From a virus, in the UHGV virus genome UHGV-0268419: a DNA stretch of 48,249 nucleotides; one strand, 5' to 3'. Made by a program: the position numbers and the translations under genes. Under the pieces are notes generated by a model. It did no database searches, was not told where the DNA came from, and saw nothing but the letters and a program-made list of their open reading frames with translations. This document shows positions 1 through 48,249 of the stretch, in pieces; within the stretch, counting starts at the first letter, position 1, and each line of letters begins with the position of its first letter.

Positions 1-365
1 CGGATGCGGACGGCGTCGATCTCGGTGTTGGTGATGTTACGCACCCATGCAGAAGACTTTTTCAGCTCCACATTGATTCGTGTTTCACTTTCCACCGCCG
101 GGAAGCCGTTGATCGGCTCCTGCTGCGGGGTGCCGTTGCGATATTCCAGTGTAACGCCCGGAATGTTTACCGACCCATCATCGTTCTGAACGGGCGTCCC
201 GTCCATGTAAACGCGCTTGGGCAGGTCTTCCGCGCTAATCGGCACGGTTTCACCCTCTGACAACGCCAGGAGCATCCTTACCGTTGCGTTGCTGATCAGG
301 GAGTCTGGATCTTCAACGGGGGTATGCACGTTGCTACTCCCGCCCTTGTATCCTTTGATTTCCAT
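1..365 (-). CDS. N-terminal 121 codons of the host-specificity / central tail fibre protein (lambda J-like). Start ATG is at 365..363. The gene continues in frame across the window junction into 48249..38811.
   Basis: Reverse-strand translation from 365 gives MEIKGYKGGSSNVHTPVEDPDSL...TEIDAVRIR, which resembles the lambda J N-terminus. The frame is continuous with ORF 38811..48248 if position 48249 is joined to position 1. The ATG overlaps the stop of gene I (TAATG). Confidence 0.8.
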   Translation of the reverse strand, partial: MEIKGYKGGSSNVHTPVEDPDSLISNATVRMLLALSEGETVPISAEDLPKRVYMDGTPVQNDDGSVNIPGVTLEYRNGTPQQEPINGFPAVESETRINVELKKSSAWVRNITNTEIDAVRI

Positions 366-16535: not shown

Positions 16536-18134
16536 TTACATGGTCAGCTTATCAAGTTCGTTCTTGATGGCTTGCTTTAACGCGCTGCTCATCTCCTCCC
16601 GGACGACTTCGCGAATGGCCTCTTTCATCTCCTCGCCCAGGGTCAGCTTGCTGGCGGGAATGTTTCCGGCGATCACCGCGTTGCCGTGTTTGAGCATGGC
16701 CCAGCTTCCATTGCTGGCAACGACATCCCCTTTAAGCTGGGTGACTTTCAGTGTGCCGCACATGGTGTGCTCCGCTGGCCCGTCGATGCCCTCTGCGGTC
16801 GCCTTCACCTTTGCCTTCACCATCGAAAGAAGTTGTTCAGTGCTGTGAATGCCTGCCGGTGCGTTGGTGTACCCGCGCGCCCAAATAACCCACGCGTCAC
16901 GCTGTGCAACGACATCCTTCACGATCTGCTCCAGTGACTCAATGCGCTCCTTGCGCTTGCGCATCGCTGCGGTGATGGCAGTCCGCTGCGCCTCGCCGCC
17001 CAGTGATGACGGGCTGCAAATGACGTCTGTAGCCCAGTCGTGCCACTCATTGAGCTGACAATACAGGCGATCAATGGTGTCCGCCTGGCGCTTCACGGTG
17101 TCACGGTCAACGGCGGTGCCTGCTTTCATGTCTTCCACGAGCTGCTTATAGCTGGCGATCTCCAGACCAGCGTTAGCCAGGCGTGCTGCGAGTTCGCTGT
17201 TATTCTTGCTCATCGCCTTCGCGTCATTGGTGAGCGCAGTGCAGCGTTGCGTTGCTGCGCCGATGATGTCGCGCTTCTCTGCGATCTCTGTGTGCAGGCG
17301 GTCAATGATTTCTAACAGCTTGCTGATCTCCTTGCGTTTCTCGACCAGTTCGTTAGCCAGCTGGTTAGCCTGCTGCCCGTTCTTGTCGCGCTGGCGCACC
17401 AGGTCGACGACAGTCTGATCGAGGTGCTCGTTGCGCTTTTGCAGGTGGGCGATCTCCTCCGCTGCGTTGCGGTTGAGGTTGATCACGTCGTCCCGCTCCC
17501 GCTCTGCGGCCTCCCTCAGCTGGTCTGATGCGTAGGCTCTGTTGTGCATGGCGTTATAGTCCTTGTTCAGCTGCTTGTTTTTGTTGTGTGCGCTTTCGAT
17601 AGCCGCCGTCATGATTAGGCGAAGATTCCGGTCGTTGGAGTTGCTGGTGGGGTAGGTGGCGAAGTAGGTATCCAGGACGTGCCGGGTGTGCGTGCGCCAG
17701 TCGTTCAGGTTGCCAGCTGCTACAGAAAGATCTTCTGAGCGCTCATCCAGGCGCTGCACGATCGTTTCTATGCCAGCGGCAATGCGCTTACGCTTCTCTT
17801 CCGGCTTCATGTTGACCACCGGCAGGCACTTGAACTTCTGCTCAAGCATTTCGACGCCGAACACCTCCCACTCGCTGAGCGCCTTGATCTTGCTGTCGCG
17901 ATCAGCCTCAAGCGATGCCATAACCTTCATGACGCCCTCAAGGCCCAGCGCCAGGGCAAGCAGGGTGCCGACCTTGATTTTCACGTGCTGCTCAGCACCA
18001 CGGTCTGCGATCTCGACGACGATGGCGCGCGCCAGCTTGAGGTTATTTTCTGCACCTGCCTCGCGGGAAGCGCAAGCGAGAACGCCGCTAACTGGTGCCG
18101 GTGCCGGGGAGGTGAATTTCAGTGATTCAGTCAT
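16536..18134 (-). CDS. 532-aa coiled-coil protein of unknown function, an accessory (moron) gene between terS and terL
   Basis: Long heptad-like helical segments and no Walker motifs. It has its own upstream TTGACA-N17/18-(G)AATAT promoter and hairpin. Confidence 0.6.
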   Translation of the reverse strand: MTESLKFTSPAPAPVSGVLACASREAGAENNLKLARAIVVEIADRGAEQHVKIKVGTLLALALGLEGVMKVMASLEADRDSKIKALSEWEVFGVEMLEQKFKCLPVVNMKPEEKRKRIAAGIETIVQRLDERSEDLSVAAGNLNDWRTHTRHVLDTYFATYPTSNSNDRNLRLIMTAAIESAHNKNKQLNKDYNAMHNRAYASDQLREAAERERDDVINLNRNAAEEIAHLQKRNEHLDQTVVDLVRQRDKNGQQANQLANELVEKRKEISKLLEIIDRLHTEIAEKRDIIGAATQRCTALTNDAKAMSKNNSELAARLANAGLEIASYKQLVEDMKAGTAVDRDTVKRQADTIDRLYCQLNEWHDWATDVICSPSSLGGEAQRTAITAAMRKRKERIESLEQIVKDVVAQRDAWVIWARGYTNAPAGIHSTEQLLSMVKAKVKATAEGIDGPAEHTMCGTLKVTQLKGDVVASNGSWAMLKHGNAVIAGNIPASKLTLGEEMKEAIREVVREEMSSALKQAIKNELDKLTM

Positions 18135-34527: not shown

Positions 34528-34890
34528 ATGACACATGCAGAGTTACACAGAATATTGCACGGCGGCATTCGCAACACTGACCGCAAAACATTTAAAGAGG
34601 CTTACGGCCTTATGCGATCATTAAAGAAAGTGGTGCTCACATATAGAGCGCCGGGAAATAATCTTATTAGGGACGTGCTATGGGAGGTTTTATTTTGCGG
34701 CGTACCCACTGGAACCGAGTTGATGCTTGGTCAGATTCTATTCCGCGATCCTGCCGTGAAATATCCAGCCATTGAGAATAAAAGCAAATGGCTATTGAAA
34801 GTTAATTGCAAGGGCGATTCACGCCGCTTTGTCAGGCAGGAAGATATCGAACGAAAACTTCGGTTAGATATGAATAAGGGGATCATGTAA
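34528..34890 (+). CDS. hypothetical protein (120 aa), AT-rich moron upstream of the exonuclease
   Basis: Local GC is visibly lower than the flanking genes. It has its own consensus promoter and occupies the gam/abc position in a Red/Erf-type recombination operon. Confidence 0.55.
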   Translation: MTHAELHRILHGGIRNTDRKTFKEAYGLMRSLKKVVLTYRAPGNNLIRDVLWEVLFCGVPTGTELMLGQILFRDPAVKYPAIENKSKWLLKVNCKGDSRRFVRQEDIERKLRLDMNKGIM

Positions 34891-35933
34891 TGTCAGATAT
34901 TAAATCGCTAAAAGATGATGAAGTGCTGTTCTTCACGAATAACGATCTGTCGAACGAAGACTATCACGCTGAGACAGACCACATGAACGGCTCCGGCTTG
35001 TGGGAGTTGTTCTCCACATGCCCGGCTAACTGGAAGTTCGCAGAGGAAAAGAAAAAGCAATCCCGCGCACTGGTATTCGGAACTGCTGCCCACGCTAACC
35101 ACCTCGAACCGGAATTATTTGCCCGTGAATATTTCCGCATGCCTGAGAAAGAGGACTTTATTAAGCGTGACGATAACGGCGATATTATTCCGCAGCCGAA
35201 CTTTATTACCTCGCTTGAGGCCGCGAAGGCATTTCTGAAAGAACACGGTGTTGCCGGTTATTCGAAAATGAAAGAGCCGGAATTAATTGAGACAGTCACC
35301 AACACCGCCGCAGCTCTTGGGATAACTGACGTTGTTTTCTGGCACGACATCGTGAAAAAGGCCAATGAAGAGCGCGGTGATCGTGAAGGCATTCGCGGAC
35401 AGGATTATGACATCATTCAGGAGATGCGCGCCGTTCTGTTTAATAACGAATCATTTAAGGAATATTTCGTCGACGGAATGTCGGAAGTCTCGATCTTTTT
35501 CAGCTATCAGGGTTTGCGCTGCAAGGTGCGCCTCGACTGGATCAGCAAGTTCGCCGACATGGTGGACTATAAGACCACAGACACGGCCAACCCTGAAAGA
35601 TTCATGCGTAAGTGCTTCGATCTCGGGTATCCGCTGAAAATGGCGTTGCAGCGCGAGGGGTTTAAGGCGGCTTTCGGCCAGAAACCGAGAAGGACGATGT
35701 TGCTGGCGCAGGAGAAGAGCAGCCCGTTCGTCGTCGCTCCTTTCGCCTTGTCAAACAAAACCCTGATGATTGGATATGCGCAGCTGCGTGAAGCCATCGC
35801 CACATTTAAATGGTGCCGGGACAATGACACGTGGCCGACCTACGGCGGCGGAAGCGTGATTGACCTCGATCCTCCGTACTACCTGGAAAACGCCTTCCGC
35901 CACTTGTGGGAAGATGTGAAAACCAAAAAATAA
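34890..35933 (+). CDS. PD-(D/E)xK exonuclease (YqaJ / lambda-Exo-like recombination exonuclease)
   Basis: RLDWISKFADMVDYKTTD...K motif. Adjacent to the Erf annealase and SSB. Confidence 0.7.
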   Translation: MSDIKSLKDDEVLFFTNNDLSNEDYHAETDHMNGSGLWELFSTCPANWKFAEEKKKQSRALVFGTAAHANHLEPELFAREYFRMPEKEDFIKRDDNGDIIPQPNFITSLEAAKAFLKEHGVAGYSKMKEPELIETVTNTAAALGITDVVFWHDIVKKANEERGDREGIRGQDYDIIQEMRAVLFNNESFKEYFVDGMSEVSIFFSYQGLRCKVRLDWISKFADMVDYKTTDTANPERFMRKCFDLGYPLKMALQREGFKAAFGQKPRRTMLLAQEKSSPFVVAPFALSNKTLMIGYAQLREAIATFKWCRDNDTWPTYGGGSVIDLDPPYYLENAFRHLWEDVKTKK

Positions 35934-35941
35934 TTGATTCA

Positions 35942-35967
35942 GGGGTAATATACTGACATATTACCCC
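35942..35967 (+). promoter_or_regulatory. intercistronic 10-bp inverted repeat between exo and erf
   Basis: GGGGTAATAT-actgac-ATATTACCCC. Confidence 0.4.
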
Positions 35968-35988
35968 CTCAATATAAGGAGTGACCAA

Positions 35989-36684
35989 ATGATGAAATTC
36001 TCTCAGCCATGCAGCACCATCGTTAAGCAGTTTGCCCACGCGCAGGATATGTGCGTATCGCCGAAGAAGTCCAAGCAGAACCAGCACCTGAAAAACCACT
36101 ATGCGACCCTCGGAGACGTTGCGGCCGCCATCGGCCCGGCAATGGAAGACGCCGGGTTGATCATGATCCAGTCTCCGACGCACGAGGCCGGACAGGCTCC
36201 GAACGTGATGCTGATGGAGACGCGCATCATCCACGTTGCCACAGGCGAATGGCTGTCCGATATCTGCCAGATCCCGCTGGCGAAGAACGACGCCCAGGGC
36301 TTCGGCTCAACGCTTACCTACGCCCGCCGCTATGCCCGCGTTTCGATCTTCGGCCTCACCATGGATGACGACGATGGCAACAAATCAGTGCGTAGCGCAG
36401 CCGACTGCCGCCGCTCCATTGAAGCCGCGAAGGATAAGGACGAAGTCGACGCCATCTACCGCGCCGCGTGCGAGCTGTTCCGCAGCGACAAGGCATCACT
36501 GCGCATCGTCGAAGATGCCCGCGCCAGCAAGATCGTCGAGCTGAAAAACGCGGAGGCCCGACCGTTCAACCCCGGCAAGCCAGCCAATGCTAAACGCGGT
36601 AAGGCTACCGTCCAGGTTGCACCTGATGACGTTCAGCCGCAAGATGTACCGCCGCAGCTATCAGACGTCGAAGAAGATTTTTAA
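35989..36684 (+). CDS. erf: ERF-family single-strand annealing protein
   Basis: Erf signature GSTLTYARRYARVSIFGL; AAGGAG RBS. Confidence 0.8.
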   Translation: MMKFSQPCSTIVKQFAHAQDMCVSPKKSKQNQHLKNHYATLGDVAAAIGPAMEDAGLIMIQSPTHEAGQAPNVMLMETRIIHVATGEWLSDICQIPLAKNDAQGFGSTLTYARRYARVSIFGLTMDDDDGNKSVRSAADCRRSIEAAKDKDEVDAIYRAACELFRSDKASLRIVEDARASKIVELKNAEARPFNPGKPANAKRGKATVQVAPDDVQPQDVPPQLSDVEEDF

Positions 36685-36696
36685 GGAGCGCTATAA

Positions 36697-37191
36697 ATGG
36701 CAAGCCGTGGAGTTAACAAGGTGATCCTCGTGGGTCGCATCGGTCAGGATCCAGAAATTCGCTACATGCCGTCAGGCGGCGCGGTGGCTAACCTCACGAT
36801 CGCGACGTCAGAATCATGGCGCGATAAGCAGACCGGCGAAGTAAAGGAGCAAACGGAATGGCACCGCGTCGTCGTCTTCGGGAAGCTGGCTGAGATCGTC
36901 GGCGAGTACGTGAAGAAGGGTTCTCAGATCTACGTCGAAGGAAAGCTGCAAACACGAAAATGGACTGACAGCAACGGAGTCGAGAAATGGACGACAGAAG
37001 TGGTTCTGAACGGGCCTAACGCCGTTATGCAAATGTTAGGCGGTAAGAGCGAAGGCGGACAGCAGGGACAGGCGCAGGGACAGGCGCAGGGACAGCCGCG
37101 CACGCATTCCGGCCCAGCGCGCCAGCAGTCAAAACCACAGCAGCAGTCCAGCGAGCCGCCGATGGACTTTGATGACGATATCCCGTTCTGA
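36697..37191 (+). CDS. ssb: single-stranded DNA-binding protein
   Basis: OB-fold N-terminus, Gly/Gln-rich linker, C-terminal DFDDDIPF tail. Confidence 0.9.
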
Positions 37192-37496: not shown

Positions 37497-37524
37497 AAAG
37501 GGGCCGATGGCCCCTTTTTTTTAT
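37497..37524. terminator. bidirectional intrinsic terminator between the early-right operon and the tail fibre gene
   Basis: GGGGCC-gat-GGCCCC followed by TTTTTTTT; the T-run overlaps the fibre stop codon. Confidence 0.75.
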
Positions 37525-38783
37525 TCCCCTTTCAGCGCCCTCAACTCCTTCCGAAGCTCCTGCACCGAAGACACCAGGTCAGCGATGATTGCCACATAGT
37601 CCACGTTCATCACCCGGAACCTCTCGCCATCGATCTCCTGCTCGACGTCCTGATAGGTGTAGACCTCGTCTACGGTCTCCGCCTGCTGTGCGATAAAACC
37701 ACGCCTAACGCGCGTTTCTCCCTTGACCCTGTACTCACACACCCCCAAGCGTTCAATGCGCTCTGAGGCGTTCTCAGGCGCTTGGGTGAAGTCTGTTTTC
37801 AGGCGAACGTCTGAGCCGGTAGTTAGAACGTCGCCTTTGGGTGTGGAGATTGTCCCCCCTGAGCGGAATGACCATGCGTCTGTTCTCCCGAAGCCGTCCA
37901 TATACATGATAATCCTGTGTTCGGTTCCCACGTACTCTTCAACATAGAAACCGCCCCACGCCCCGTAGGTGTCACCGTTACCGCCGCGTCCGAGCATTCG
38001 AGATCGAATCCTCCCACCTGAAACCAACGAACCAATAGCAGGGGAGCCGAAGTCTGTTCTGTTGGACGAAAGATCGACGCCGCATTGCGTCCACCCTTTA
38101 ATGTCTGCCATACCAAAAACACGAAGATCCCTGTCAACTCGCAAATGACTACTTTGCACACTAATTTGATCGGCGGCAGTGGCTATAATCCGCCCGGTAA
38201 AGTCGTCTGTGCTGTAGTTAAAATGGAAGTCGATGTATGGCGATCCAAATGACAGCTCAATCGCCTGGGCATACAGCAGCCCCTTAGCCACTACATCCCC
38301 ACCAGTGGAAAGCGCCCCGGGTAGCGTGGTCTTCTTATCCGTTCCGATGGTCAAAATATCCTCGACCGTAGAAGACGGTGAGACTGTTGCTGTATTCGTG
38401 CGCTGGATCTTGAATGGCGTACCGCTACCGACGGCGATGGTGCCGCCCTGGCCGCTCTTTTTAAGCAGTGCAAGATCGCTGTTTTTCCCAAGGATCACCA
38501 TGCTGTTGTCGTTCATCACGTTGATGTTGCCGACAGAAACATTAATCCCGGCGCTGAACGTTTGCAGGGCCGTGAAGGTGTTCGCCGCTCCTCGTTGAGC
38601 TGCGGTATCCACTGAGCCGATCACCTTGTTCCATGAGCGCACTGTTGCGGTGGTTCCGTCCTGCTTGGTGATCTGCACGTCGCCAACGCCGAAGAAGATC
38701 TGATCCTGATTGGCGAGGTCTGTGTAGTATTTGCTGAATGCGTTGTGAATATCAGCCGCGAGTTGGTCGCTAATATTTGCCAT
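37521..38783 (-). CDS. tail fibre / tailspike with a C-terminal intramolecular chaperone (peptidase S74) domain
   Basis: C-terminal SDVRLKTDF...GFIAQQAETV...IIADLVSSVQELRKELRALKGE is an S74-type auto-cleaving chaperone. It has an N-terminal anchor and a beta-rich middle. Confidence 0.8.
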   Translation of the reverse strand: MANISDQLAADIHNAFSKYYTDLANQDQIFFGVGDVQITKQDGTTATVRSWNKVIGSVDTAAQRGAANTFTALQTFSAGINVSVGNINVMNDNSMVILGKNSDLALLKKSGQGGTIAVGSGTPFKIQRTNTATVSPSSTVEDILTIGTDKKTTLPGALSTGGDVVAKGLLYAQAIELSFGSPYIDFHFNYSTDDFTGRIIATAADQISVQSSHLRVDRDLRVFGMADIKGWTQCGVDLSSNRTDFGSPAIGSLVSGGRIRSRMLGRGGNGDTYGAWGGFYVEEYVGTEHRIIMYMDGFGRTDAWSFRSGGTISTPKGDVLTTGSDVRLKTDFTQAPENASERIERLGVCEYRVKGETRVRRGFIAQQAETVDEVYTYQDVEQEIDGERFRVMNVDYVAIIADLVSSVQELRKELRALKGE

Positions 38784-38810: not shown

Positions 38811-41800
38811 TTATTGTCCAAAAGAACCGTTGTTGCTTCGGAATGCAGTCACAACAATATTGCTTACTGTGACCTCACTCTGCTGCGGCCCAAAACTTGC
38901 GCCAGTCAGCGAGATGCCGATTCGGTCGTTACTTGCTGGAATGTTAACGGTGAACGACTGCGGAACATCCACAAGGCCACGCGCTTTATCCCGCATATCA
39001 ACAACGACGCGTCTCGTACTCTGCACTCCGTTAATGTTGAATGTCAGAACCACATAGAAGTCACGGCTTTGGTCGCCTACCCCGCCAGAGTATGAATTGC
39101 ATCGCACAGTGCAGTTCAGCGTGATGGTCATCGGATACCCACGGTTCTGATACCATGCGTTCATAGTGCCAGAACCTTCACCGCCCTTGACAGTAAATCC
39201 GTTGAACGAAGCAGAAGTAGCAATATCGCCGATAAAAGACTCAGCTTGCACCGTTCCCTTGAAAATACCGCTGTTAGCCTCGACACGACCACGAACGATA
39301 ACGTTATTGAACTGCGAGCTGCCATCTTTACCGATGCGCCAGCCCTGAGAGCCATCGACAAAGTTGTTCGACTTGATTTCGTTTCCGATCTTCGCGTTGG
39401 TGATCGAGCCATCGCGGATCAGCGCTTCCTGCATGTACGCCACGCCGTTCTGCACAACGAACGGGAACGTCTTGTTACTGCCGCCAGCGTACACCGCGAA
39501 GGTGTCAGCCTGAACCAGGAACTGAGAAGAGCCACTCGCGTCGATGCCCAGCTGAATACCAGCAATGCGCGGGTTTCCGCCGCCGTTGTCAGTCTGAACT
39601 TTGACGCCCCACTGCGCCGACAGCTTGCCGTTGATATCCGCAACAGCCGTTGAAGTCTGCTGAACGGTGGAACTCATACCATCCACTGACGCCTTGATTG
39701 TGCCGATCTGCTGCGCCGTTGAAGACTCAAGATCCACCATTGCCTGGCTCGTCTGCGTGATGGCCGCCTGGTTGTCGCCGATCTGCGCACGCAGTTGCTG
39801 GAAGCCGTTCGCCATCGCCAGACCGTTAGCCGCTGTCGTCTCATTCAGGGCATTGACCGACGCTTCGGCTGTCCCCACCCGGCTCGTCAGCCCGGTAATG
39901 GCGGTCGTGTTCGCCGTAATGTCCTTGCCCTGCTGCGTCACCGTGGAGTTCAGCGAGGTGATGGCGGCCGCGTTCGCCTGGATCCCAGCGCCCCGACGGG
40001 TCACTACCGGGTTATACAGGCTGACGCGGGTCGTGGCGGCGTGGCTCCCCGCCTGGATGTAGGCGGTCGTACAGCCTGCCGGAACCGTGATGCCCGTCAG
40101 GGTGAAGCGATATTTCTCCCCGGCGGTCATGGTGCGGTTGGTGGCATACGCGGTCTGGTTGCTGACACTCGGGCCGTCGAAACGTAGCCCGACTGTTATC
40201 TCGCCTGCGATGTTGACCATTACCGACACCGCCAGATCCAGCGTCTCACCCGCCGTGACCGGGAATTTCCCCGACGTCGGGTTATAGCTCACCGTGGAGT
40301 ACACCGCCGGATAGCCGTCGATGGTCTCCGTCCCGGTCTTCGCCCAGCCCTGGCCATCGCCCAGCATTCCAGGGTTAGGCACCAGGTTGTCGCCGTAGGT
40401 GATGCTGTTCTGTAGACTGGTGATGCTCTGACCTTGCGAAGTGATGCTTCCCTCGGCAGACGTCACTCGGTTGGTTAGGGCGGTCAGCGCGGTCGCATTC
40501 GCCTTTTTGGCCACTTCCGCATTCGTGGCCGCCAGGTCGCCCTTCGTCGTGGACAGGTCGCTATTCAGCTTGGTAATCGCCTGACCCTGAGAGGTCAGTG
40601 TATTGCCCTGCTGGGTGACAGTCGATTGCAGGCTGGTGATCGCGTTGGAGTTCGCGATAGTACCGGCATTTCTGCGGGTAACTTTAATGTTATAGATCGT
40701 GAGGGTAATGGCGTTTCTGCTATAAGGTTGGAGATAGCCAGTTGTCGCGCCATCCGGGACAGTGATGGTTCCAGTTACGGATTTCTTCTCGCCAGCTGCA
40801 TAGTTTAACGGCTCCACGTAGACCGAGTTGTTCGTCATGCTCGGGCCATCGAAGCGAATACCCCATGCCATGCCGTTGATTGCGGCACCAGCCAGACAAA
40901 GAAGACTAAAGTCTAGAATGTCGCCAGGTGTTACGGAAAACTTAGGTGAAGTTGGAGACCATGCTGCCGTGTCGATCACAGCCGGATAACCGTCAACAGT
41001 TGTTGCATGACCACCCCAACCCTGAGCGTCATTCAGCATTGCGGAGTTCGGAACAATGTTGTCGCCCACCGTTAAAGTATTTTCTAACGACGTTACGCGA
41101 CTGCCCTGGCTCGCGATTTGGCCTTCTGTGGTGGTAACGCGCGTTTGCAGCGCGGTGACTGCGCTGGCGTCAGCCTTCTGACTCAGCGTGCCATTGATGG
41201 TGCTCACGTCACCGTTCAGCTTGGTGATCGCGTCTGCCTGAGATGTGATCTGCCCTTCTGCGGCGCTCACACGGCTGGTCAGGCTATTGATCGCGCTTGA
41301 GTTAGCGTCTGCTGTGGTCTGTGCTGCGTGCGCGTCGGTTACGTCGGTGATCACCAGATCGTCGATATAGATGCGATATCCAGGGCCTCCGGACGTGCCG
41401 CGAGTGGAGATCCACAGGCGACCTCGTGTTTTCTTTGCGCCGTCTAAGCCGAGCTTACCGGAGAACTTGACCCACTGACCGCGGCCGCCACCAGCAGCAA
41501 GCCCTGCCTCTGTAATGACGAATGCGCTAGGCCATGCGTTCTGGTTGGCTGTGTTGCGAACCATTAAGCCCACAACACAGTTCCACCCGTTCGGCGGCGT
41601 CTCATCTTCCGGCATCATCGCCCAGCATTCGAAGCGGTAAACCGCAGACTCGCGAATAGCTGTTTCATTGCCGAAAGTCTTGTCAGAGTTGCCGGATTCA
41701 CCGTTGGCGCGGCGACACATAAGCGACTTCTGACCACTGAATGAGAAGTCAGTAGTGACCAGTCCATTAGATCCGCCGATGGCTTGCTGGTTGTCATACG

Positions 41801-44800
41801 ACTCGAATGATCCATCTACCCACGGGTTGCTGTTGCTGTACTGAACAGTTTTAAGCGAGTTGTTCAGCTGGGTGATCGCGCTGCCCTGCGACGTGATGTC
41901 GTTACCCTGCTGGGTTACTTTCGTGTTCAGCGAGGTGATCGCGTCAGCGTTCGCCTGAATCTTGGTGTCGTTGGTGATGTCGACAACGTAGACGTCGTCG
42001 AAATACATCGCCCCAGCACTCAGTGCGGTAGTCAGCTGAAACAGCGCGTTGGTGGTCTTCGTAGCCGTCCAGTCCATGAAGACGTGTTGCCATTCAGACG
42101 TAAACGGGCCGTAATTCGTGCCAGCAAGAAGATTTCCTGATGCGTCAGCGATACGGAATTTCGTGTTGTTCGTATCGTTGATGACAGTACCGGCGTCCTG
42201 TTTGGTAAACACGCCGAAGCGGTAGCGGCGGCCCTGCGTGATCTCCACGGCCTGACTGATTCCAGCTCTTCCGCCTGCCGCCATCTTGACAATTTTGGTG
42301 CCAGAATGCGGCTGTGTTGCCGTGATGATGGTGGCAAGGCTGCTCCAGCCGGTGAAGTTAACCGGGCCGCGCTCAAACGATGAGTTAGCCAGCAGGTTTC
42401 CGGGGATCTTGCCCTGCGCGTCGATTGAGGCGTCAGTTGCAGACAGGCTATTGCTCAGCTGGGTGATCGACTGGCCCTGTGAATCGATCTTGCCTTCGGC
42501 AGTCGATACGCGGGTGGTAAGCGCGTTCAGCGCCGAAGCGTCAGCCTTATTGTTCACGATGCCGGTCAGCGTGCTCAGATCGCTGGTCAGTTTGGTGATG
42601 GCCTGACCCTGAGACGTGATCGACCCTTCCGCTGATGTGACACGGGTGGTCAGCTGGCTGATCGCTGTGGCGTTGGCGTCTGCCTTGCCCTCAGCAGTCG
42701 CCGCTGCGGTGACGTCGCGCACCTGCCAGTCGGTCGCATACCATACTGTCCCGAAGTTAGGGCCGTCCTGATTGATTTGCAGGAATGGACGGAAGTAACC
42801 CTTCGCACCCTGCGCCGCGTTTACTTTCCAGCGCCACGTGGTTCGCGTCCACTGCGCGCCGGTAGCCGCTGAGATTTGGCCTCCGTTCGCCAGTGGCGAC
42901 CCGATGCTGCCAGAAACCAGTGTCGACGTCCCGATGTAGTGCTGGAACGGTGCAGTGCCGGTGCCACACGCAGCCAGTACAGACAGCTCAAACACCTGAC
43001 CTTCGCGGCAAGGGATGTTATTCATTGCCGGGACGTGATCGCGGTACTGGCATTTAATCGCCCACGGGTAAGGGCATCCAGCCGGAACGCCTTCTGACGT
43101 TGTGGAGACAACGTTCATGCCCATTTGCGGATAGGCCGGGTCTACCGTCGGGTTCGGGATGAGGTTCGCCGCCTGAGTCAGTACGCCCTTGATCGATGAG
43201 TTGATCGAGGTGATGGACTCAGCCTGTGAGTCAATCTTCCCTTCGGCTGCACTGACCCTGGTCGTCAGGTTGTTGATCGCCGTTGAGTTAGCGGAGATCT
43301 TCCCGTTCGCTGTCGACAGGTCGCTGGTGAGCTGGGTAATTGCATTGCCATGAGCCGTGATCTTCCCTTCGGCGGTGGTGACGCGGGTGGTCAGCGACTG
43401 CAATGCGCTCGCGTCAGCTTTGTTGTTCAGCGCGGTGTTGATGTCCCGCACCGAGTTGTTCAGAGTGACGATAGCGGCACTGTTCGCGTCAACCTTCCCG
43501 GAGGTCTGCTCAACCTGAGAGGAGAGCACCTGGGAGGCTGATGCAGCGGCCAGCTGACCGGCACCACTGAACAGTTGATCGACGTTGTCGGACAGCTTGA
43601 GGCCAAAGTTGATATAGAACTGACCGGTGTACTGCGCAACAACGAATTCAAGCGTGTTCCAGCCTTTTTTGAGATCCATGCTGTAGGTGCTGGTGCTGGC
43701 AGAGAAGGAAGCCGCTTCCGTTCCATTGATGTACAGCCGTCCGGTGTCGTCAATGATGCGGGAACCGGGCGAGATAGCAATGGTCTTATCAGCCGCAACA
43801 TACACCAGCGCCTTCACATACGCGATTTTGTAGTCGCCGTAAGGCAGAAAATCCAGCTTTGCAGCGTCAGCCATCTCGTACACGGCCAGCGGCGGCACGC
43901 CTGCGAGATCTGTTAACTTCGGCACGTAGCCGGTATTAACCTTAATATCGAAGATCTTTGTCAGCCAGTACTTCGCTTTACCGTTCTGCGCGGTGTTCTG
44001 CAAATCGGTGATGGCCTGACCCTGCGAAGAGATGGCGTTCCCCTGCTGGGTGACAGTGGTCGCCAGCTGCTGCAATGCGCTCGCTTCGGCCTTGGTCGCC
44101 ATCTGACCCTGCAAAGTGCTCACGTCGCCTTTGAGCTGGGTGATCGCCTGGCTGTTGGTGCTGATGGTGCCTTCCGCCGCAGTAACGCGGGTGGTCAGGG
44201 CGTTAAGCGCCGTAGCGCTCGCGTTGGCGGTGTTGATGCTGCCCTGGACTTCGTCCGGGTTCGGCCCCCAGTCGGTTCCCCGGTTGCCCTCTTCCAGCTG
44301 GATTTTGTACAGCACGCAGCCGGTCGTCCGCTCCTTATCCTCACAGATAATGCGCAGCGTGTTCGGATTTTTGAACAGTACCGCCCCGGCCGCCACTGTA
44401 ACCGTCCCGCGATAGCGGAAATACTGGCCATCCTCCACGATGCTTCCGTCGCTCATGTAGAAGCGCTTGCTCCAGCTGTCACCGGTCGCGCTCGCGGCCC
44501 CAAGCACGGCGCTGGTGAACGGATCTTTCATGGTGTAATCGTTGGACTTCTTAAACCAGACTGACAGCGTGAAATAGGTGGTCGCACTGATGCTTTTCGC
44601 CTTCCACGTGTCCGGCACCTGGAAGTCATACGAGGTGAACGACGTCGCCGAAGACCGCATGGTGAGCGGGTTCAGTGTGCGGTCTGACCCCAGCAGGATG
44701 TTCTCTGCCCCGATCTTAATTTCCGTGACTGTGTTCTTTAGCGAGGTAATCGCCTGGCCCTGAGAGGTCAGCGTATTGCCCTGCTGGGTGACAGTCGATT

Positions 44801-47800
44801 GCAGGCTGGTGATCGCGTTGGAGTTCGCCGTGATCTTCCCGTTCGCGTCGGTCAGGCCGCTTTGAAGCTGGGTAAGTGCCTGCGCCTGAGACTGGTTCTC
44901 GCTGGTCAGCGTGTCGAGACGCTTGGTCACGGAGGCCTTGTTCGCGTTGTAGTCAGTGCGCAGGGTGTTGACGTCGCTGGCGATCGCCTGCTCTGCGGTG
45001 ACGCGGGTCTGGCGCTCGTTGAAGATGATGCCTGTCACCAGCTTGGACGGGTCGGTTCCCTCATAGTTCCCGCGAAGCTGTACGGCCAGCGTGTTACGCG
45101 CTGCGGCTTCGGCAGAGTCCGCAGAGGTCATGGCGGTGCGAAGATCCTGAATCTGCGCCTGTGAAGCGCCTGGGGTCGGTCGTCCTACTGCCAGCCAGTC
45201 GACGGCGTAGTAGTTATTGGCGTCCTGATTGTTTGAGAAGTCAAAGCGCAGGCGGCGCACGGTGCCGGATGTCGCCCACAGAAGATCTGGGATCGACAGG
45301 ACAGTGATCCCGGTGGCCGGGTCAAAGTCAGGTGCCGGAATGGCAATTGAGCGGCCACTTGTCCAGCCAGTCTCATCCACACCAATCCAATACAGCTTAC
45401 CAGCCCATGACGGGTTCCCGACTCGCTTCATGCGCAGGCGCATGTACTTATAGCTGCGCGCGTCGATTGCCAGCGGGTTAGGTGAGCGCATGGTGGATGC
45501 TGCGCCAGCAGGGTAAATCCAGCCATCTTGGTCGACGGTGAGCAGATTGGTGTTGGCGTCGTCAGAAGCCCACCCTTCCGGGCCGTTGTCGAAATACCAG
45601 ATAGCGAGGCTGTCGAACTGCTCGCCAGTACCAGCGGAAATGGATGCCATCTGCTGCGCCAGGCTGTCGAAGCCGTCCTGCATCGTGGTATTGGTGGTGC
45701 TGATCTGCGCTTCGACTTCGTTTTTTGTCGCCAGCAGGTTAGCCGCAGCCTGAGCTGCCACTTCTGCGTCATCCGTCTCAGCCTTCGCGATAGCGTCGGC
45801 CACGTCCTGAGCTGCCTTGTTGGCGTTCGCGATGTCGCCAGCCTTGCGGTCAAGGATCTCCTGAGCGATTGCACTGGCGTTTGCCGCCCCCGCGTTAGCG
45901 GTGGTGGTGATGGCCTGCGCGTTCTTCTGGATCTCGGCCAGCTGGTTGTTCAGCTGCTGCTGCTGCTGCTGGTTGGTTGTCACTGCTCCGTCAGCAGTAA
46001 CCTGCGCGGCCTGCGCGGCGTCTTTCGCTGCCTGTGCGCTGTCGCTTACGTCTTTGATGCCGCTGGTAAGTTCGCCGTAGGTGTCGGAGCCTTTGATCGC
46101 GTCGTCGATGTTCTGGTAATAGTCGTCCATGTTGTCGGACGTCATCGCCATGACCGGGGCGCTCCACTCGCCAGCATCGCTATATGACGACACAAAGCGG
46201 GCGCGCACCTGCACGCGTTCGGAAAATTTCAGGCCGGACTGTGTGAACGTCCCGGTCGGGTAGGTCACGACGCTGAGATCGATCCACCCACCAACCGGAG
46301 CACCATTGCCGTCAATGCGCTGGAACTGTAGCTCTGTCGACTTCATGTCGATCAGATCATCCGTGCCAGTCACCCAACGCCAGGTAATACCGTTAACGAT
46401 GCCTACGCCGTTCAGGCCAGCTACTGCCGGGATGCTGCCGCGCTTGCCGTCAACGAACACCTGATTCGACTCGACCCACTGAGACGACCCGCCGTCACGG
46501 GATACGGAACGAACGCGGAACTGATAGGTGCCGGTCAGAACGTTGGTCAGGTCTACGGACGTGCTCGACTGGCTGGCAAGGTTAGTCCACCCCTGTGACC
46601 ACTGGCCGTTTGACTGAGAGGTTCGGCGCACCTGAATGTCGTAGCTGACGGCCTGACCTACGGTGAACCATGAACAGTTTACGTTAGCTGAGCGAATCCC
46701 CTGGTTAACGATACTGTAGCCTTCGGCCACCACGTTAGCGGGTGCCTGTACCTGACCGGTCGGGATCAGCGATGTCGGGCGGTCTTCAATTCGCGCGCCG
46801 GTGTCAACCTGCAAATACTTCGAGTGGCTGTATTGCAGACCGGTAACGGTGAAATTATTGTCCTGCTCGTTGTAGGTGATCTTGGTGATGCGGATTAGTT
46901 CCGGTGCCAGTACCTTAGTATCCAGCAGGAACACTTCACCGCTCTGAATATCAAGGTTAGCGCCGTCGACGGTGAAGGACATCCGGTCAGCCGCGATTGC
47001 ATTGATCACGCGGTTGTAGGTTCCATCCGATCCAGCTTGACGAACGATCACTCTGTCGCCGATTGCCACGTGGTCGGAGATCATACGGTCGGAGGTAATG
47101 GTGGTGCCGGATGCGCCAGCAACACGCCCGCCGAACTGACCGCCCTGCACGTAGCGGTTAGCGATGCCGACGACGTCGCCGATCAGGTACTTGATGCCGC
47201 TCAGGCCGACGCGGTAGCTGATCTGCATGTCGTTGGTATTCGACAGCAGCGCCCACAGGCCGCGACGTTGCGCTTCGTATTCGTCCGTGCAGCCGATGCC
47301 GGACACTTCCAGCGGCTCAACGCCATAGCGCTCCACGAGGTCTTTGATCTGCGCCACAGTGGTCTGCGTCTTATAGTGCGCCTTCGGGTCGTCAAAAGTG
47401 ACCATCGCGATCCCGCGACGGTTAGCCATGCTGCCGTAGGAATATTCGAACGTCCCGTTCACGACGTCGTCGTTTGTCACAACATGGCGGACTTCTGCCG
47501 GTGCATCCTGCGCGAACTGCAATTGCATATTGCTGTAGCTGACCATTCCGTTAAAGATCGACGCCAGGTCACGGATGACGATCCACGCATGCTCGCGTTT
47601 CTGGATATACACGTTACAGGTGTAACGGCGGTTCTGCGTGCCGTCGGCGTTCGTCACCAGCTCATCGCAGCGCTGTGCGATGCTGTACATCGTCCATTTG
47701 TTCAGGAATGAGGACGGGATACGGCGGCCAATACCGAAGCGCTTGTGCAGAATGATGTCGTAGACGATCCACGCCGGGTTATCCGTCCACGCCTGTTTAA

Positions 47801-48249
47801 ATGTCCCGTTCCACGACCCGCTGTAGGTGTGGTTAACAGGGTCATAGTTGGACGGAACCAGCACCAGACGGCCGCCCATCTTGATGCTGATTGTCGGGAT
47901 GTTCTGGAACGATTTGGCGTCGAAGCTGACGAACAGTAGGGACGTCCACGGGTAACGAACGCGGGCGTCGACGATCTCGGTGACAGCCACGATCCCGGAG
48001 TTGAGCACGGTGGTATCAGACTTGCTGTCGTCAGTTAGGCGGGTAACGCGGATTTGCCAGCCAGCGCTGCTCTTCGGCAGGTCGATGCGGTGATCGCGTT
48101 CATAGTTGTCTTTCTGCTTGCCGTCGACAGCACCATTGAAGGCCACGGTGTAGACGCTGTCGCCGACTTTGCGGTATTCAATCCGGTACTCAATGCGTCC
48201 GCCTACGCGATCCCCGTCCTTCTGCTGGATGACCAGCCGGAAATTCATT
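38811..48249 (-). CDS. central tail fibre / host specificity protein J-like, C-terminal 3146 codons. The full gene is ~3267 aa and wraps to 1..365. It contains ≥7 coiled-coil/globular repeat modules.
   Basis: The core resembles lambda J (LVPSNYDP..YSGSWNGTFKQAW...NPAW). The C-terminal ~200 aa resemble the lambda J receptor-binding region. The intervening ~2000 aa consist of repeated ITSLQSTVTQQGNTLTSQGQAITSL-type helical segments alternating with beta-rich domains. Confidence 0.85.
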   Translation of the reverse strand, partial: MNFRLVIQQKDGDRVGGRIEYRIEYRKVGDSVYTVAFNGAVDGKQKDNYERDHRIDLPKSSAGWQIRVTRLTDDSKSDTTVLNSGIVAVTEIVDARVRYPWTSLLFVSFDAKSFQNIPTISIKMGGRLVLVPSNYDPVNHTYSGSWNGTFKQAWTDNPAWIVYDIILHKRFGIGRRIPSSFLNKWTMYSIAQRCDELVTNADGTQNRRYTCNVYIQKREHAWIVIRDLASIFNGMVSYSNMQLQFAQDAPAEVRHVVTNDDVVNGTFEYSYGSMANRRGIAMVTFDDPKAHYKTQTTVAQIKDLVERYGVEPLEVSGIGCTDEYEAQRRGLWALLSNTNDMQISYRVGLSGIKYLIGDVVGIANRYVQGGQFGGRVAGASGTTITSDRMISDHVAIGDRVIVRQAGSDGTYNRVINAIAADRMSFTVDGANLDIQSGEVFLLDTKVLAPELIRITKITYNEQDNNFTVTGLQYSHSKYLQVDTGARIEDRPTSLIPTGQVQAPANVVAEGYSIVNQGIRSANVNCSWFTVGQAVSYDIQVRRTSQSNGQWSQGWTNLASQSSTSVDLTNVLTGTYQFRVRSVSRDGGSSQWVESNQVFVDGKRGSIPAVAGLNGVGIVNGITWRWVTGTDDLIDMKSTELQFQRIDGNGAPVGGWIDLSVVTYPTGTFTQSGLKFSERVQVRARFVSSYSDAGEWSAPVMAMTSDNMDDYYQNIDDAIKGSDTYGELTSGIKDVSDSAQAAKDAAQAAQVTADGAVTTNQQQQQQLNNQLAEIQKNAQAITTTANAGAANASAIAQEILDRKAGDIANANKAAQDVADAIAKAETDDAEVAAQAAANLLATKNEVEAQISTTNTTMQDGFDSLAQQMASISAGTGEQFDSLAIWYFDNGPEGWASDDANTNLLTVDQDGWIYPAGAASTMRSPNPLAIDARSYKYMRLRMKRVGNPSWAGKLYWIGVDETGWTSGRSIAIPAPDFDPATGITVLSIPDLLWATSGTVRRLRFDFSNNQDANNYYAVDWLAVGRPTPGASQAQIQDLRTAMTSADSAEAAARNTLAVQLRGNYEGTDPSKLVTGIIFNERQTRVTAEQAIASDVNTLRTDYNANKASVTKRLDTLTSENQSQAQALTQLQSGLTDANGKITANSNAITSLQSTVTQQGNTLTSQGQAITSLKNTVTEIKIGAENILLGSDRTLNPLTMRSSATSFTSYDFQVPDTWKAKSISATTYFTLSVWFKKSNDYTMKDPFTSAVLGAASATGDSWSKRFYMSDGSIVEDGQYFRYRGTVTVAAGAVLFKNPNTLRIICEDKERTTGCVLYKIQLEEGNRGTDWGPNPDEVQGSINTANASATALNALTTRVTAAEGTISTNSQAITQLKGDVSTLQGQMATKAEASALQQLATTVTQQGNAISSQGQAITDLQNTAQNGKAKYWLTKIFDIKVNTGYVPKLTDLAGVPPLAVYEMADAAKLDFLPYGDYKIAYVKALVYVAADKTIAISPGSRIIDDTGRLYINGTEAASFSASTSTYSMDLKKGWNTLEFVVAQYTGQFYINFGLKLSDNVDQLFSGAGQLAAASASQVLSSQVEQTSGKVDANSAAIVTLNNSVRDINTALNNKADASALQSLTTRVTTAEGKITAHGNAITQLTSDLSTANGKISANSTAINNLTTRVSAAEGKIDSQAESITSINSSIKGVLTQAANLIPNPTVDPAYPQMGMNVVSTTSEGVPAGCPYPWAIKCQYRDHVPAMNNIPCREGQVFELSVLAACGTGTAPFQHYIGTSTLVSGSIGSPLANGGQISAATGAQWTRTTWRWKVNAAQGAKGYFRPFLQINQDGPNFGTVWYATDWQVRDVTAAATAEGKADANATAISQLTTRVTSAEGSITSQGQAITKLTSDLSTLTGIVNNKADASALNALTTRVSTAEGKIDSQGQSITQLSNSLSATDASIDAQGKIPGNLLANSSFERGPVNFTGWSSLATIITATQPHSGTKIVKMAAGGRAGISQAVEITQGRRYRFGVFTKQDAGTVINDTNNTKFRIADASGNLLAGTNYGPFTSEWQHVFMDWTATKTTNALFQLTTALSAGAMYFDDVYVVDITNDTKIQANADAITSLNTKVTQQGNDITSQGSAITQLNNSLKTVQYSNSNPWVDGSFESYDNQQAIGGSNGLVTTDFSFSGQKSLMCRRANGESGNSDKTFGNETAIRESAVYRFECWAMMPEDETPPNGWNCVVGLMVRNTANQNAWPSAFVITEAGLAAGGGRGQWVKFSGKLGLDGAKKTRGRLWISTRGTSGGPGYRIYIDDLVITDVTDAHAAQTTADANSSAINSLTSRVSAAEGQITSQADAITKLNGDVSTINGTLSQKADASAVTALQTRVTTTEGQIASQGSRVTSLENTLTVGDNIVPNSAMLNDAQGWGGHATTVDGYPAVIDTAAWSPTSPKFSVTPGDILDFSLLCLAGAAINGMAWGIRFDGPSMTNNSVYVEPLNYAAGEKKSVTGTITVPDGATTGYLQPYSRNAITLTIYNIKVTRRNAGTIANSNAITSLQSTVTQQGNTLTSQGQAITKLNSDLSTTKGDLAATNAEVAKKANATALTALTNRVTSAEGSITSQGQSITSLQNSITYGDNLVPNPGMLGDGQGWAKTGTETIDGYPAVYSTVSYNPTSGKFPVTAGETLDLAVSVMVNIAGEITVGLRFDGPSVSNQTAYATNRTMTAGEKYRFTLTGITVPAGCTTAYIQAGSHAATTRVSLYNPVVTRRGAGIQANAAAITSLNSTVTQQGKDITANTTAITGLTSRVGTAEASVNALNETTAANGLAMANGFQQLRAQIGDNQAAITQTSQAMVDLESSTAQQIGTIKASVDGMSSTVQQTSTAVADINGKLSAQWGVKVQTDNGGGNPRIAGIQLGIDASGSSQFLVQADTFAVYAGGSNKTFPFVVQNGVAYMQEALIRDGSITNAKIGNEIKSNNFVDGSQGWRIGKDGSSQFNNVIVRGRVEANSGIFKGTVQAESFIGDIATSASFNGFTVKGGEGSGTMNAWYQNRGYPMTITLNCTVRCNSYSGGVGDQSRDFYVVLTFNINGVQSTRRVVVDMRDKARGLVDVPQSFTVNIPASNDRIGISLTGASFGPQQSEVTVSNIVVTAFRSNNGSFGQ
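40572..40655 (-). repeat. intragenic DNA repeat copy 1 (82/84 nt identical to 44745-44828)
   Basis: ggtaatcgcctgaccctgagaggtcagtgtattgccctgctgggtgacagtcgattgcaggctggtgatcgcgttggagttcgc. Confidence 0.8.
44745..44828 (-). repeat. intragenic DNA repeat copy 2
   Basis: Near-identical to 40572-40655; encodes the same coiled-coil peptide. Confidence 0.8.

Follow-up and report, generated by a model that had tools for sequence, protein, structure and literature searches.

A 3267-residue lambda J-like central tail fibre of a Klebsiella siphophage, with a predicted coiled-coil stalk of putative lectin-like modules exchanged as cassettes

The subject of this analysis is the largest gene of UHGV-0268419, a virus genome of 48,249 nt that was examined over its whole length (the window). 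By its sequence matches, this gene is the central tail fibre (lambda J/TipJ family) of a ~48-kb Klebsiella siphophage. Its product differs from ordinary J proteins by a single large insertion, in which helical linkers alternate with beta modules, and the gene is a mosaic of segments with different nearest relatives. Taken as a whole, we think it rather probable that the protein is a central fibre whose coiled-coil stalk carries lectin-like modules that bind Klebsiella glycans, and that these modules are recombined as cassettes.

The gene is interrupted by the ends of the window. In the list of open reading frames (ORFs) it occupies 38811..48248 on the (-) strand, corresponding to 3145 amino acids (aa), with its ATG one base from the window end. 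When the two ends are joined (window positions 365..1 placed upstream), a single uninterrupted ORF of 9804 nt is obtained, which encodes 3267 aa, the approximate length that had been given in a first-pass annotation of the DNA. The start codon of the rebuilt gene, at 365-363, overlaps the stop codon of the upstream tail assembly (I-like) gene as TAATG. The peptide across the junction, with ...AVRIR on one side and MNFRL... on the other, is unbroken in the Klebsiella phages Wooten_MM7 (3273 aa, annotated as a tail protein) and EKq1 (3381 aa). Therefore, judged from this contiguity, the window is a complete, circularly permuted phage genome of ~48.2 kb, and the length of 3267 aa holds provided that this is so. 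Residue numbers below refer to the full protein; numbering by the listed ORF is 122 lower. An arbitrary start point thus splits the largest gene, and a linear ORF call loses 122 codons. A fifth of the genome (20%) is devoted to this one protein.

The conserved parts of the gene are:

1..365 (-): codons 1-122 of the J/TipJ gene, which resumes at the other window end and is contiguous in relatives.
46155..48249 (-): rest of the J core, hub and FN3 domains, aa 123-820 (Pfam, PDB, PHROG 31 and 2589).
39246..39626 (-): tail-tip fibre domain, aa 2997-3123 (Pfam PF09327, PDB matches).
38811..39245 (-): C-terminal domain, aa 3124-3267, and the stop codon; a variable cassette and the presumed receptor-binding domain.

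Residues 1-820 comprise the J hub and FN3 domains, as indicated by Pfam (FNIII-A_GpJ, 79 bits against a cut-off of 27), by PDB entries of the J-like protein gp24 (23gd_D, E 2e-178) and lambda J (8iyk_J, E 5e-68), and by PHROG 31 (central tail fibre J, E 5e-227) and PHROG 2589 ('tail protein', a profile of 3686 positions, E = 0). The N-terminal region (8-836 in ORF numbering) aligns with positions 130-940 of the F2 pyocin fibre (1204 aa), as well as with other J-like proteins, and the C-terminal 391 aa align with residues 981-1197 of the same fibre. The extra material therefore corresponds to one insertion of ~1940 aa, in good agreement with the earlier observation that a lambda-J-like core and a J-like C-terminal region lie ~2000 aa apart. 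It is located at a single site just before the Phage_Tail_Tip domain (PF09327/DUF1983; 127 bits against a cut-off of 22), which aligns with the C-terminal part of the F2 pyocin fibre and lambda J and forms, together with the C-terminal domain, the last 270 aa. The hub, FN3, tip and C-terminal regions are homologous to those of lambda J/TipJ proteins (8iyk; gp24 23gd_D; F2 pyocin fibre 25vf). The gene order is also the same, with the tape measure and the L-, K- and I-like tail assembly genes upstream of J (PHROG 24, 18, 30 and 32). In contrast, these known proteins are 1132-1204 aa long and have only ~40 residues where the present fibre has ~1940 aa of predicted coiled coil and eight modules.

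The insertion and the helices flanking it are divided as follows, from the N-terminal to the C-terminal end (H, helical linker; B, beta module; AF2, AlphaFold model; pLDDT, predicted local distance difference test):

45618..46154 (-): H0, first helical stalk segment, aa 821-999; no aromatic residue or proline; periodicity 3.60, reached by 0/300 shuffles.
45168..45617 (-): B1, aa 1000-1149; AF2 all-beta, pLDDT about 90; first module in every full-length homologue.
44724..45167 (-): H1 linker, aa 1150-1297; AF2 helices at 153-183 and 199-297 of the model; periodicity 3.5; holds the proximal copy of an 84-nt element.
44250..44723 (-): B2, aa 1298-1455; variable slot 2, type Q2; AF2 beta-rich, low confidence (pLDDT 40-72).
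43986..44249 (-): H2 linker, aa 1456-1543; AF2 helices; periodicity 3.40 with a register shift.
43557..43985 (-): B3, putatively PA14-like, aa 1544-1686; AF2 pLDDT 75-95.
43176..43556 (-): H3 linker, aa 1687-1813; linker scan and periodicity.
42708..43175 (-): B4, CBM_4_9-like superfamily, aa 1814-1969; hhalign.
42414..42707 (-): H4 linker, aa 1970-2067; linker scan and periodicity.
41967..42413 (-): B5, CBM_4_9, aa 2068-2216; Pfam PF02018.
41838..41966 (-): H5, short linker of 43 aa; periodicity 3.5, reached by 0/300 shuffles.
41334..41837 (-): B6, CBM_4_9-like, aa 2260-2427; jackhmmer, hhalign.
41073..41333 (-): H6 linker, aa 2428-2514; periodicity; left breakpoint of the slot 7-8 swap.
40668..41072 (-): B7, variable slot 7, aa 2515-2649; AF2 beta sandwich; Foldseek matches to CBM22, CBM16 and CBM4.
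40401..40667 (-): H7 linker, aa 2650-2738; begins with the distal 84-nt element; AF2 one continuous 89-residue helix.
39987..40400 (-): B8, paralogue of B7, variable slot 8, aa 2739-2876; 50% identity to B7; AF2 beta sandwich.
39627..39986 (-): H8 linker, aa 2877-2996; periodicity; right breakpoint of the slot 7-8 swap.

The linkers were delimited as stretches in which W, F, Y, P, C and H do not occur. Nine such linkers, of 43 to about 180 aa each and 950-1010 aa together, separate eight beta domains of 135-168 aa that are rich in aromatics, proline and glycine; 'at least seven' modules had been recognized before. Hydrophobic periodicity was analyzed by scanning periods of 3.0-4.25 with a local register trace. 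It peaks at 3.40-3.65 in nine of ten segments (the exception being one 33-residue piece), a result reached by 0/300 shuffles, while a fixed single register at period 3.5 over the whole segment failed for half of the linkers. In the linkers of 87-98 aa (H2, H4, H6 and H7), as well as in H3, the register shifts near the middle and divides the linker into two heptad blocks. In H2-H6, the shift is located at a K-A-[DE]-A-S-A motif, and this recurring feature could act as a hinge.

The linkers match the gp26 tail needle in its trimeric coiled coil (PHROG 1219, E 3e-14; PDB 4lin, E 3e-5), and H8 aligns with the pre-tip helices of the F2 pyocin fibre. They resemble P22-type gp26 and T4 fibritin in the gp26 match itself and in having heptad blocks with register shifts, but those proteins are 230-490 aa long and have no interspersed lectin-like domains. 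Two regions were modelled as AlphaFold monomers, residues 1000-1686 (mean pLDDT 75.1) and 2505-2885 (mean pLDDT 75.6), and in both models all-beta domains alternate with long single helices. A fold-back helical hairpin, considered for the 88-aa linkers, was rejected, as the models show single continuous helices (89 and 99 residues) with a kink at most. The block-mean pLDDT of the H7 helix is mostly 71-95 and is lower at its C-terminal end. Thus, periodicity, AlphaFold models, Pfam, PDB sequence matches and fold searches all agree with the alternation of heptad-like helices and beta domains that had been noticed in the first-pass annotation.

B5 passes the Pfam threshold for CBM_4_9 (PF02018; 31.5 bits against a cut-off of 25.9), whereas Pfam gave no match for B1, B4, B6, B7, B8 or the C-terminal domain. 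To find more remote relationships, jackhmmer was run iteratively on a set of about 235 giant homologues, and profiles were then compared with each other by hhalign. A jackhmmer search seeded with B5 recovers 112 of 138 B6-type segments, and hhalign links B5 to B6 (100%), B4 to B7 (96.6%), B4 to B5 (94.1%) and B5 to B7 (85.4%) over nearly their full lengths. Shallow family alignments showed only Q5~x0 and Q7~Q8 (B7~B8, 99.8%), and the link across B4-B8 needed the deeper jackhmmer alignments. On these profile comparisons, B4-B8 are best described as one CBM_4_9-like superfamily. B7 and B8 are clear paralogues, as had been claimed for two of the beta domains: B7+H7 and B8+H8 are 50-51% identical over about 240 aa (E 6e-36). 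They were found by blastp with chunked queries; blastp of the whole protein against itself gave the self match alone.

The first-pass annotation had also proposed that the beta domains look like carbohydrate-binding modules (CBMs) and that individual modules be folded and compared with such structures. Foldseek matches of the B7-H7-B8 model include a tandem CBM22 (4xup, E 1e-11), Bacteroides SGBP-B, CBM16, CBM4-2 and a hyaluronan-binding module, with E-values of 1e-12 to 1e-6. Template modelling (TM) scores to the target are 0.5-0.56 for single CBMs (CBM16, 2zex). The same model also matches CBM-like domains of Cry and Vip3 toxins. The B1-B3 model gave weaker matches, to the PA14 lectin domains of Cea1A and MpIBP and to CBMs (E 1e-4 to 1e-3, TM to target about 0.4), with the matching module not specified. 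B1 and B3 are modelled with a pLDDT of 75-95 and B2 with 40-72. The PA14 likeness probably belongs to B3, as suggested by the sequence pattern of this module, for which Pfam PA14 gave no match at E up to 1. Therefore, the CBM-like description stands for B4-B8 and for several alternative cassettes of relatives (Pfam, hhalign, Foldseek), and is probable for B3, while B1 and B2 are beta domains without an assigned family. Among the alternative cassettes, Pfam assigns x0 to CBM_4_9 (33.4 bits) and x3 to ILEI (39 bits). Glycan or capsule binding by the beta modules would be in keeping with these models and assignments.

B7-type modules are rare, being found in 14 representative clusters among 1.84 billion proteins. 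All but one of these clusters contain proteins of 263-4797 aa, eight of them of 1538 aa or longer, and some have four or five matched stretches. The sandwich-helix-sandwich unit matches 978 viral models in BFVD. Gram-positive siphophage tail proteins are among these (lactococcal Tal/Dit extensions, PblB and Bacillus receptor-binding proteins); they likewise carry CBM-like sandwiches on tail-tip proteins, but on other scaffolds, with far fewer modules and without a long coiled-coil stalk. B1 is widely shared as a first module: Xanthomonas and Stenotrophomonas phages of the Xp10 type have it alone in J proteins of ordinary size, and tail proteins of Erwinia and Salmonella myophages of the phiEa21-4 type contain it as well.

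To place the gene among its relatives, we compared it at the nucleotide and protein levels. Megablast identified 55 phage records, 53 of them from Klebsiella. These are 46-49-kb siphophages, mostly unclassified, and include vB_Kp3, HSE3-like phages, EKq1, PMBT64, phiKp and the MM series. The J length comparison that had been recommended gives 3049-3381 aa in this group; Carter_MM5 is the shortest (3049 aa), lacking B7 and the adjoining linker parts. The giant TipJ genes of the vB_Kp3/HSE3/EKq1 group (PHROG 2589) are 82-97% identical to the present gene in nucleotide sequence over the aligned part (megablast) and are identical in slots 1 and 3-6, but among the proteins compared the combination of modules Q2 with Q7+Q8 is found here only.

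The extent of this variation became apparent when 124 full-length homologues, the present gene included, were cut at the linkers and their modules clustered at 60% identity. Slots 1, 3, 4, 5 and 6 are constant across the 124 proteins, and only slots 2 and 7-8 and the C-terminal domain are exchanged, in combinations. Slot 2 holds one of three unrelated cassettes, with B2 replaced in seven of eight relatives. Slots 7-8 contain x1+x0, Q7+Q7, x3+Q8, Q7+Q8, Q8 alone or others, and the CBM_4_9 cassette x0 is found both at slot 2 and at slot 8. The C-terminal domain is replaced in EKq1, K34PH164, K49PH164C2 and KPJD2. Each breakpoint examined falls in a helical linker; for the slot 7-8 swap, the left one is in H6 and the right one in H8. 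Q2 together with Q7+Q8 is absent from the other 123 proteins. These results support the earlier view of the gene as a substrate for variation by recombination. The nearest relatives of the individual segments, by nucleotide identity, are:

H1-B2-H2: K34PH164, 96-98%.
H6-B7-H7-B8-H8: Wooten_MM7, 98-100%.
Tip domain: vB_Kp3, 97%.
C-terminal domain: Holland_MM2, 99% (vB_Kp3, 97%).

The J gene of K34PH164 stops early (3236 aa) and is followed by a separate 156-aa ORF ('tail protein and host specificity'); this ORF is a C-terminal domain that has been split off or else an alternative receptor-binding subunit.

Another sign of exchange is an 84-nt element that occurs twice in the linkers:

44745..44828 (-): proximal copy, in H1, encoding ANSNAITSLQSTVTQQGNTLTSQGQAIT, aa 1263-1290.
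40572..40655 (-): distal copy, at the start of H7, aa 2654-2681.

The first-pass annotation had listed this segment as present twice at 82/84 identity, ~4.2 kb apart, and had attributed it to recent duplication or gene conversion. The identity is exact on direct comparison: the copies lie 4173 nt apart and have sharp borders, and both mismatches are synonymous. The element encodes 28 residues, i.e. four heptads of linker. Other copies of the linker unit are 60-75% identical, and the 82/84 pair is therefore far beyond background. Recent sequence exchange is certain. Such near-identity, with synonymous differences only, would favour duplication or conversion within the gene, and B7/B8 is a genuine and polymorphic tandem duplication (Carter_MM5 has one copy); the two 84-nt copies would then be a substrate for intragenic recombination now. 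However, nearly all of nine sequenced relatives have the distal copy, while the proximal copy is confined to this phage and K34PH164, which share their slot-2 cassette. Every gene that carries Q2 has the proximal copy and no gene without Q2 has it, whatever slots 7-8 hold. Moreover, the distal copy of vB_Kp3, which has no Q2, is 100% identical to the proximal copy of this phage, and the identity drop against Q2-less relatives begins exactly at the proximal element, with the left breakpoint of the slot-2 swap just upstream. Together, these observations indicate that the element is part of the imported cassette, and an origin within the gene, which is not needed to account for the identity, appears unlikely.

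The element is better read, from its distribution in these sequences, as a linker segment travelling with particular cassettes than as the mark of a local duplication. On this reading, two copies are present in this gene because two cassettes, each with one copy, were combined. At the protein level, the motif occurs at three sites only across the 124 homologues: 20-25 residues before Q2, between Q7 and Q8, and after the last x1/x0-type module.

Since Q2 with Q7 and Q8 is seen only here among the 124 proteins, and the segments have different nearest relatives, the combination or the repeat might also have arisen by mis-joining reads of two co-occurring related phages. We regard such an assembly artefact as very improbable. 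Over 9.8 kb the reading frame is unbroken, and no module is truncated. Ordinary reads are longer than the 84-nt repeat, which cannot make an assembly collapse. In addition, each half of the combination is found in independent assemblies, K34PH164 likewise carries two copies of the element, and mosaicism of this kind is the norm in the family.

Two neighbouring features may be relevant to the function and the exchange of the fibre modules:

37521..38783 (-): separate S74 fibre of 420 aa, whose Peptidase_S74 chaperone domain is C-terminal (residues 324-371; Pfam PF13884, 40.8 bits, cut-off 22; PHROG 1980).
34890..37191 (+): recombination module of exonuclease VIII (RecE-like), Erf-like annealase and SSB (PHROG 412, 155 and 44).

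The Pfam score of the former is in line with the separate S74-chaperone fibre that had been predicted. The length of this side-fibre gene varies between 1218 and 1287 nt among close relatives, and in the HSE3 paper the S74 fibre gene is described as the only structural gene that is not vB_Kp3-like (PMC7232175), so both fibres vary. The adjoining exonuclease VIII/Erf/SSB module is a plausible driver of fibre cassette exchange.

A possible mechanism can be outlined from these features. By analogy with trimeric lambda J and gp26, three chains would form a segmented parallel coiled coil. Its straight helical part would measure ~140-150 nm (950-1000 residues at 0.148 nm each), or ~160-190 nm with the modules and tip. 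The eight nodes, with three lectin-like domains each, would present 24 weak glycan-binding sites, which may bind Klebsiella capsular or other surface polysaccharide and hold the virion, and the distal domain could then reach an outer-membrane receptor through a thick capsule. The variable slots (2, 7 and 8) and the distal domain would determine host range jointly with the S74 side fibre. Homologous recombination in conserved linker DNA, with co-infecting phages and Klebsiella prophages as partners, might generate new combinations. The phage's own RecE/Erf/SSB module may help in this exchange, of which the 84-nt near-identity would be a trace. A link to the capsule is counted in favour of this interpretation, as the relative PMBT64 lyses only K3-capsule strains, with a faint halo; its micrographs are without a visible tail appendage (PMC13435897).

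Several points weigh against a stalk of glycan-binding modules. No binding, structural or host-range experiment was found for any member of the family. The negative-stain micrographs of PMBT64 show no appendage, and a 150-nm fibre was therefore not seen. Thin fibres are often missed in negative stain. The similarity to CBM folds is moderate (TM 0.4-0.56, from models with a mean pLDDT of about 75) and is no proof of sugar binding; B2, the module of the variable slot 2, is modelled with low confidence, and B1-B3 are without a family assignment at the sequence level. The trimeric state and the parallel register are extrapolated from lambda J. The constancy of slots 1 and 3-6 argues that much of the fibre does not determine host range, and the S74 fibre could carry all of the capsule specificity.

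The same constancy, together with the lack of a lectin signature in B1 and B2, would suit a ruler or spacer, in which the insertion sets length and stiffness, ligand-free beta nodes stabilize the trimer, and variation in the slots is neutral or evades defence. The 124 closest homologues keep to 3044-3381 aa and seven to eight modules despite the swaps, and PMC12143355 mentions defences of the Tai type that recognize central fibres. However, three independent lectin-type families (CBM_4_9, ILEI and PA14-like) have been recruited into the same slots, and other lineages have 2 to 14 or more modules in proteins of 1538-4797 aa, so length is not fixed in the wider family. We consider such a ruler or spacer role quite unlikely, more so than an origin of the 84-nt pair within the gene. 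Alternatively, the modules might bind environmental glycans, such as mucus or biofilm matrix, and enrich the phage where its hosts live, as proposed for Ig-like/Hoc-like capsid decorations. CBM-like and Ig-like decorations with such a role are known, the Hoc-like protein of PMBT63 interacts with mucin (PMC13435897), and the phages discussed here come from sewage or gut sources. These modules, however, are not on the capsid but on the infection organelle, between hub and receptor-binding tip, and in phages isolated on different Klebsiella strains, changes in the variable slots go together with changes in the distal domain and side fibre. The chance that environmental glycans are the ligands therefore seems very slight.

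If the preferred glycan-binding reading is carried further, the fibre would be a depolymerase-independent device for capsule penetration, with a ~150-nm stalk, 24 lectin sites, three swappable positions and a swappable tip, and with Erf/RecE-driven recombination at the coiled-coil joints with Klebsiella prophage and phage-plasmid genes. This extension is speculative, and we put it forward only tentatively. The host range of Klebsiella phages is usually put down to capsule depolymerases. Neither J nor the S74 fibre contains a right-handed beta-helix or a lyase/hydrolase Pfam family; the screen for depolymerases covered these two proteins and not the remaining genome. This abundant group of 48-kb siphophages, including members of therapeutic cocktails such as EKq1, shows no depolymerase domain in the two fibre proteins screened. 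If the device exists, the host range of a common phage group would be predictable and could be engineered cassette by cassette. The slot map suggests which parts might be exchanged for retargeting (slots 2, 7 and 8 and the C-terminal domain, with the linkers as joints), and makes the capsule-binding role directly testable. A phage-training paper that mentions EKq1 was set aside, as it concerns recombination in Jiaodavirus and not this phage group.

The kind of protein described here is already catalogued and very common, as TipJ family, PHROG 2589, phiKO2 gp21 and in Klebsiella prophages, and will not surprise phage specialists. The value of the analysis lies in the slot map and the hypothesis rather than in a new type of protein: the cassette combination is new, and the slot structure and linker breakpoints, which we found laid out in no paper, may be useful. 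A search of 5.8 billion proteins returned 1518 matches at E <= 1e-5. The best 120 of these are all 2475-3381 aa long, come from 48-kb phage contigs and Klebsiella chromosomes, and include the names 'TipJ family phage tail tip protein', 'carbohydrate binding domain-containing protein' and 'DUF1983'. The design is shared by phiKO2 gp21 (3433 aa), an Acinetobacter phage protein of ~3490 aa and a protein of Stenotrophomonas phage Siara (2555 aa), and phages with this design infect Klebsiella, Acinetobacter, Stenotrophomonas, Xanthomonas and Erwinia. These genera are mostly producers of capsule or exopolysaccharide.

Distant lineages contain the same module families in other orders and numbers, and B1 is the leading module wherever the N-terminal core is present. 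PhiKO2 gp21, annotated as 'similar to lambda J', has the same giant design, with B1, B4, B5, B6 and the tip in common at 39-56% identity, but differs in its module order (B1-?-B6-B5-B4-?-B6-?), in its temperate phage-plasmid background, and in lacking B2, B3 and B7/B8. A homologue of 4797 aa has 14 modules or more, and B4-B5-B6 occurs in it twice, the two runs being in opposite order. A similar extension is known from T5-like Klebsiella grimontii phages, whose giant pb4 central fibres (3446-3454 aa) have been proposed to bind carbohydrates (PMC13611949). They also reach about 3400 aa through lectin-like and Ig-like beta domains in variable combinations (PMC13611949), but their stalk is not homologous, being a collagen-like triple helix instead of the predicted alpha-helical coiled coil, and their hub (pb3) and receptor binder (pb5) are separate proteins.

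Elsewhere in the genome, a 532-aa ORF at 16536-18134 (-), upstream of the large terminase gene, gave no PHROG match at E <= 1e-5 and no Pfam match at E <= 1e-3. The tail of the relative HSE3 is 189 nm long (PMC7232175). Genes homologous to the fibre gene are found on Klebsiella chromosomes and plasmids, and homologues of about 4200 aa have been described in Klebsiella prophages by De Sousa et al. 2020 (PMC7784688). Many homologues are located on Klebsiella contigs of ~110 kb, one of which is labelled as a plasmid by NCBI, suggesting that these are phage-plasmids.

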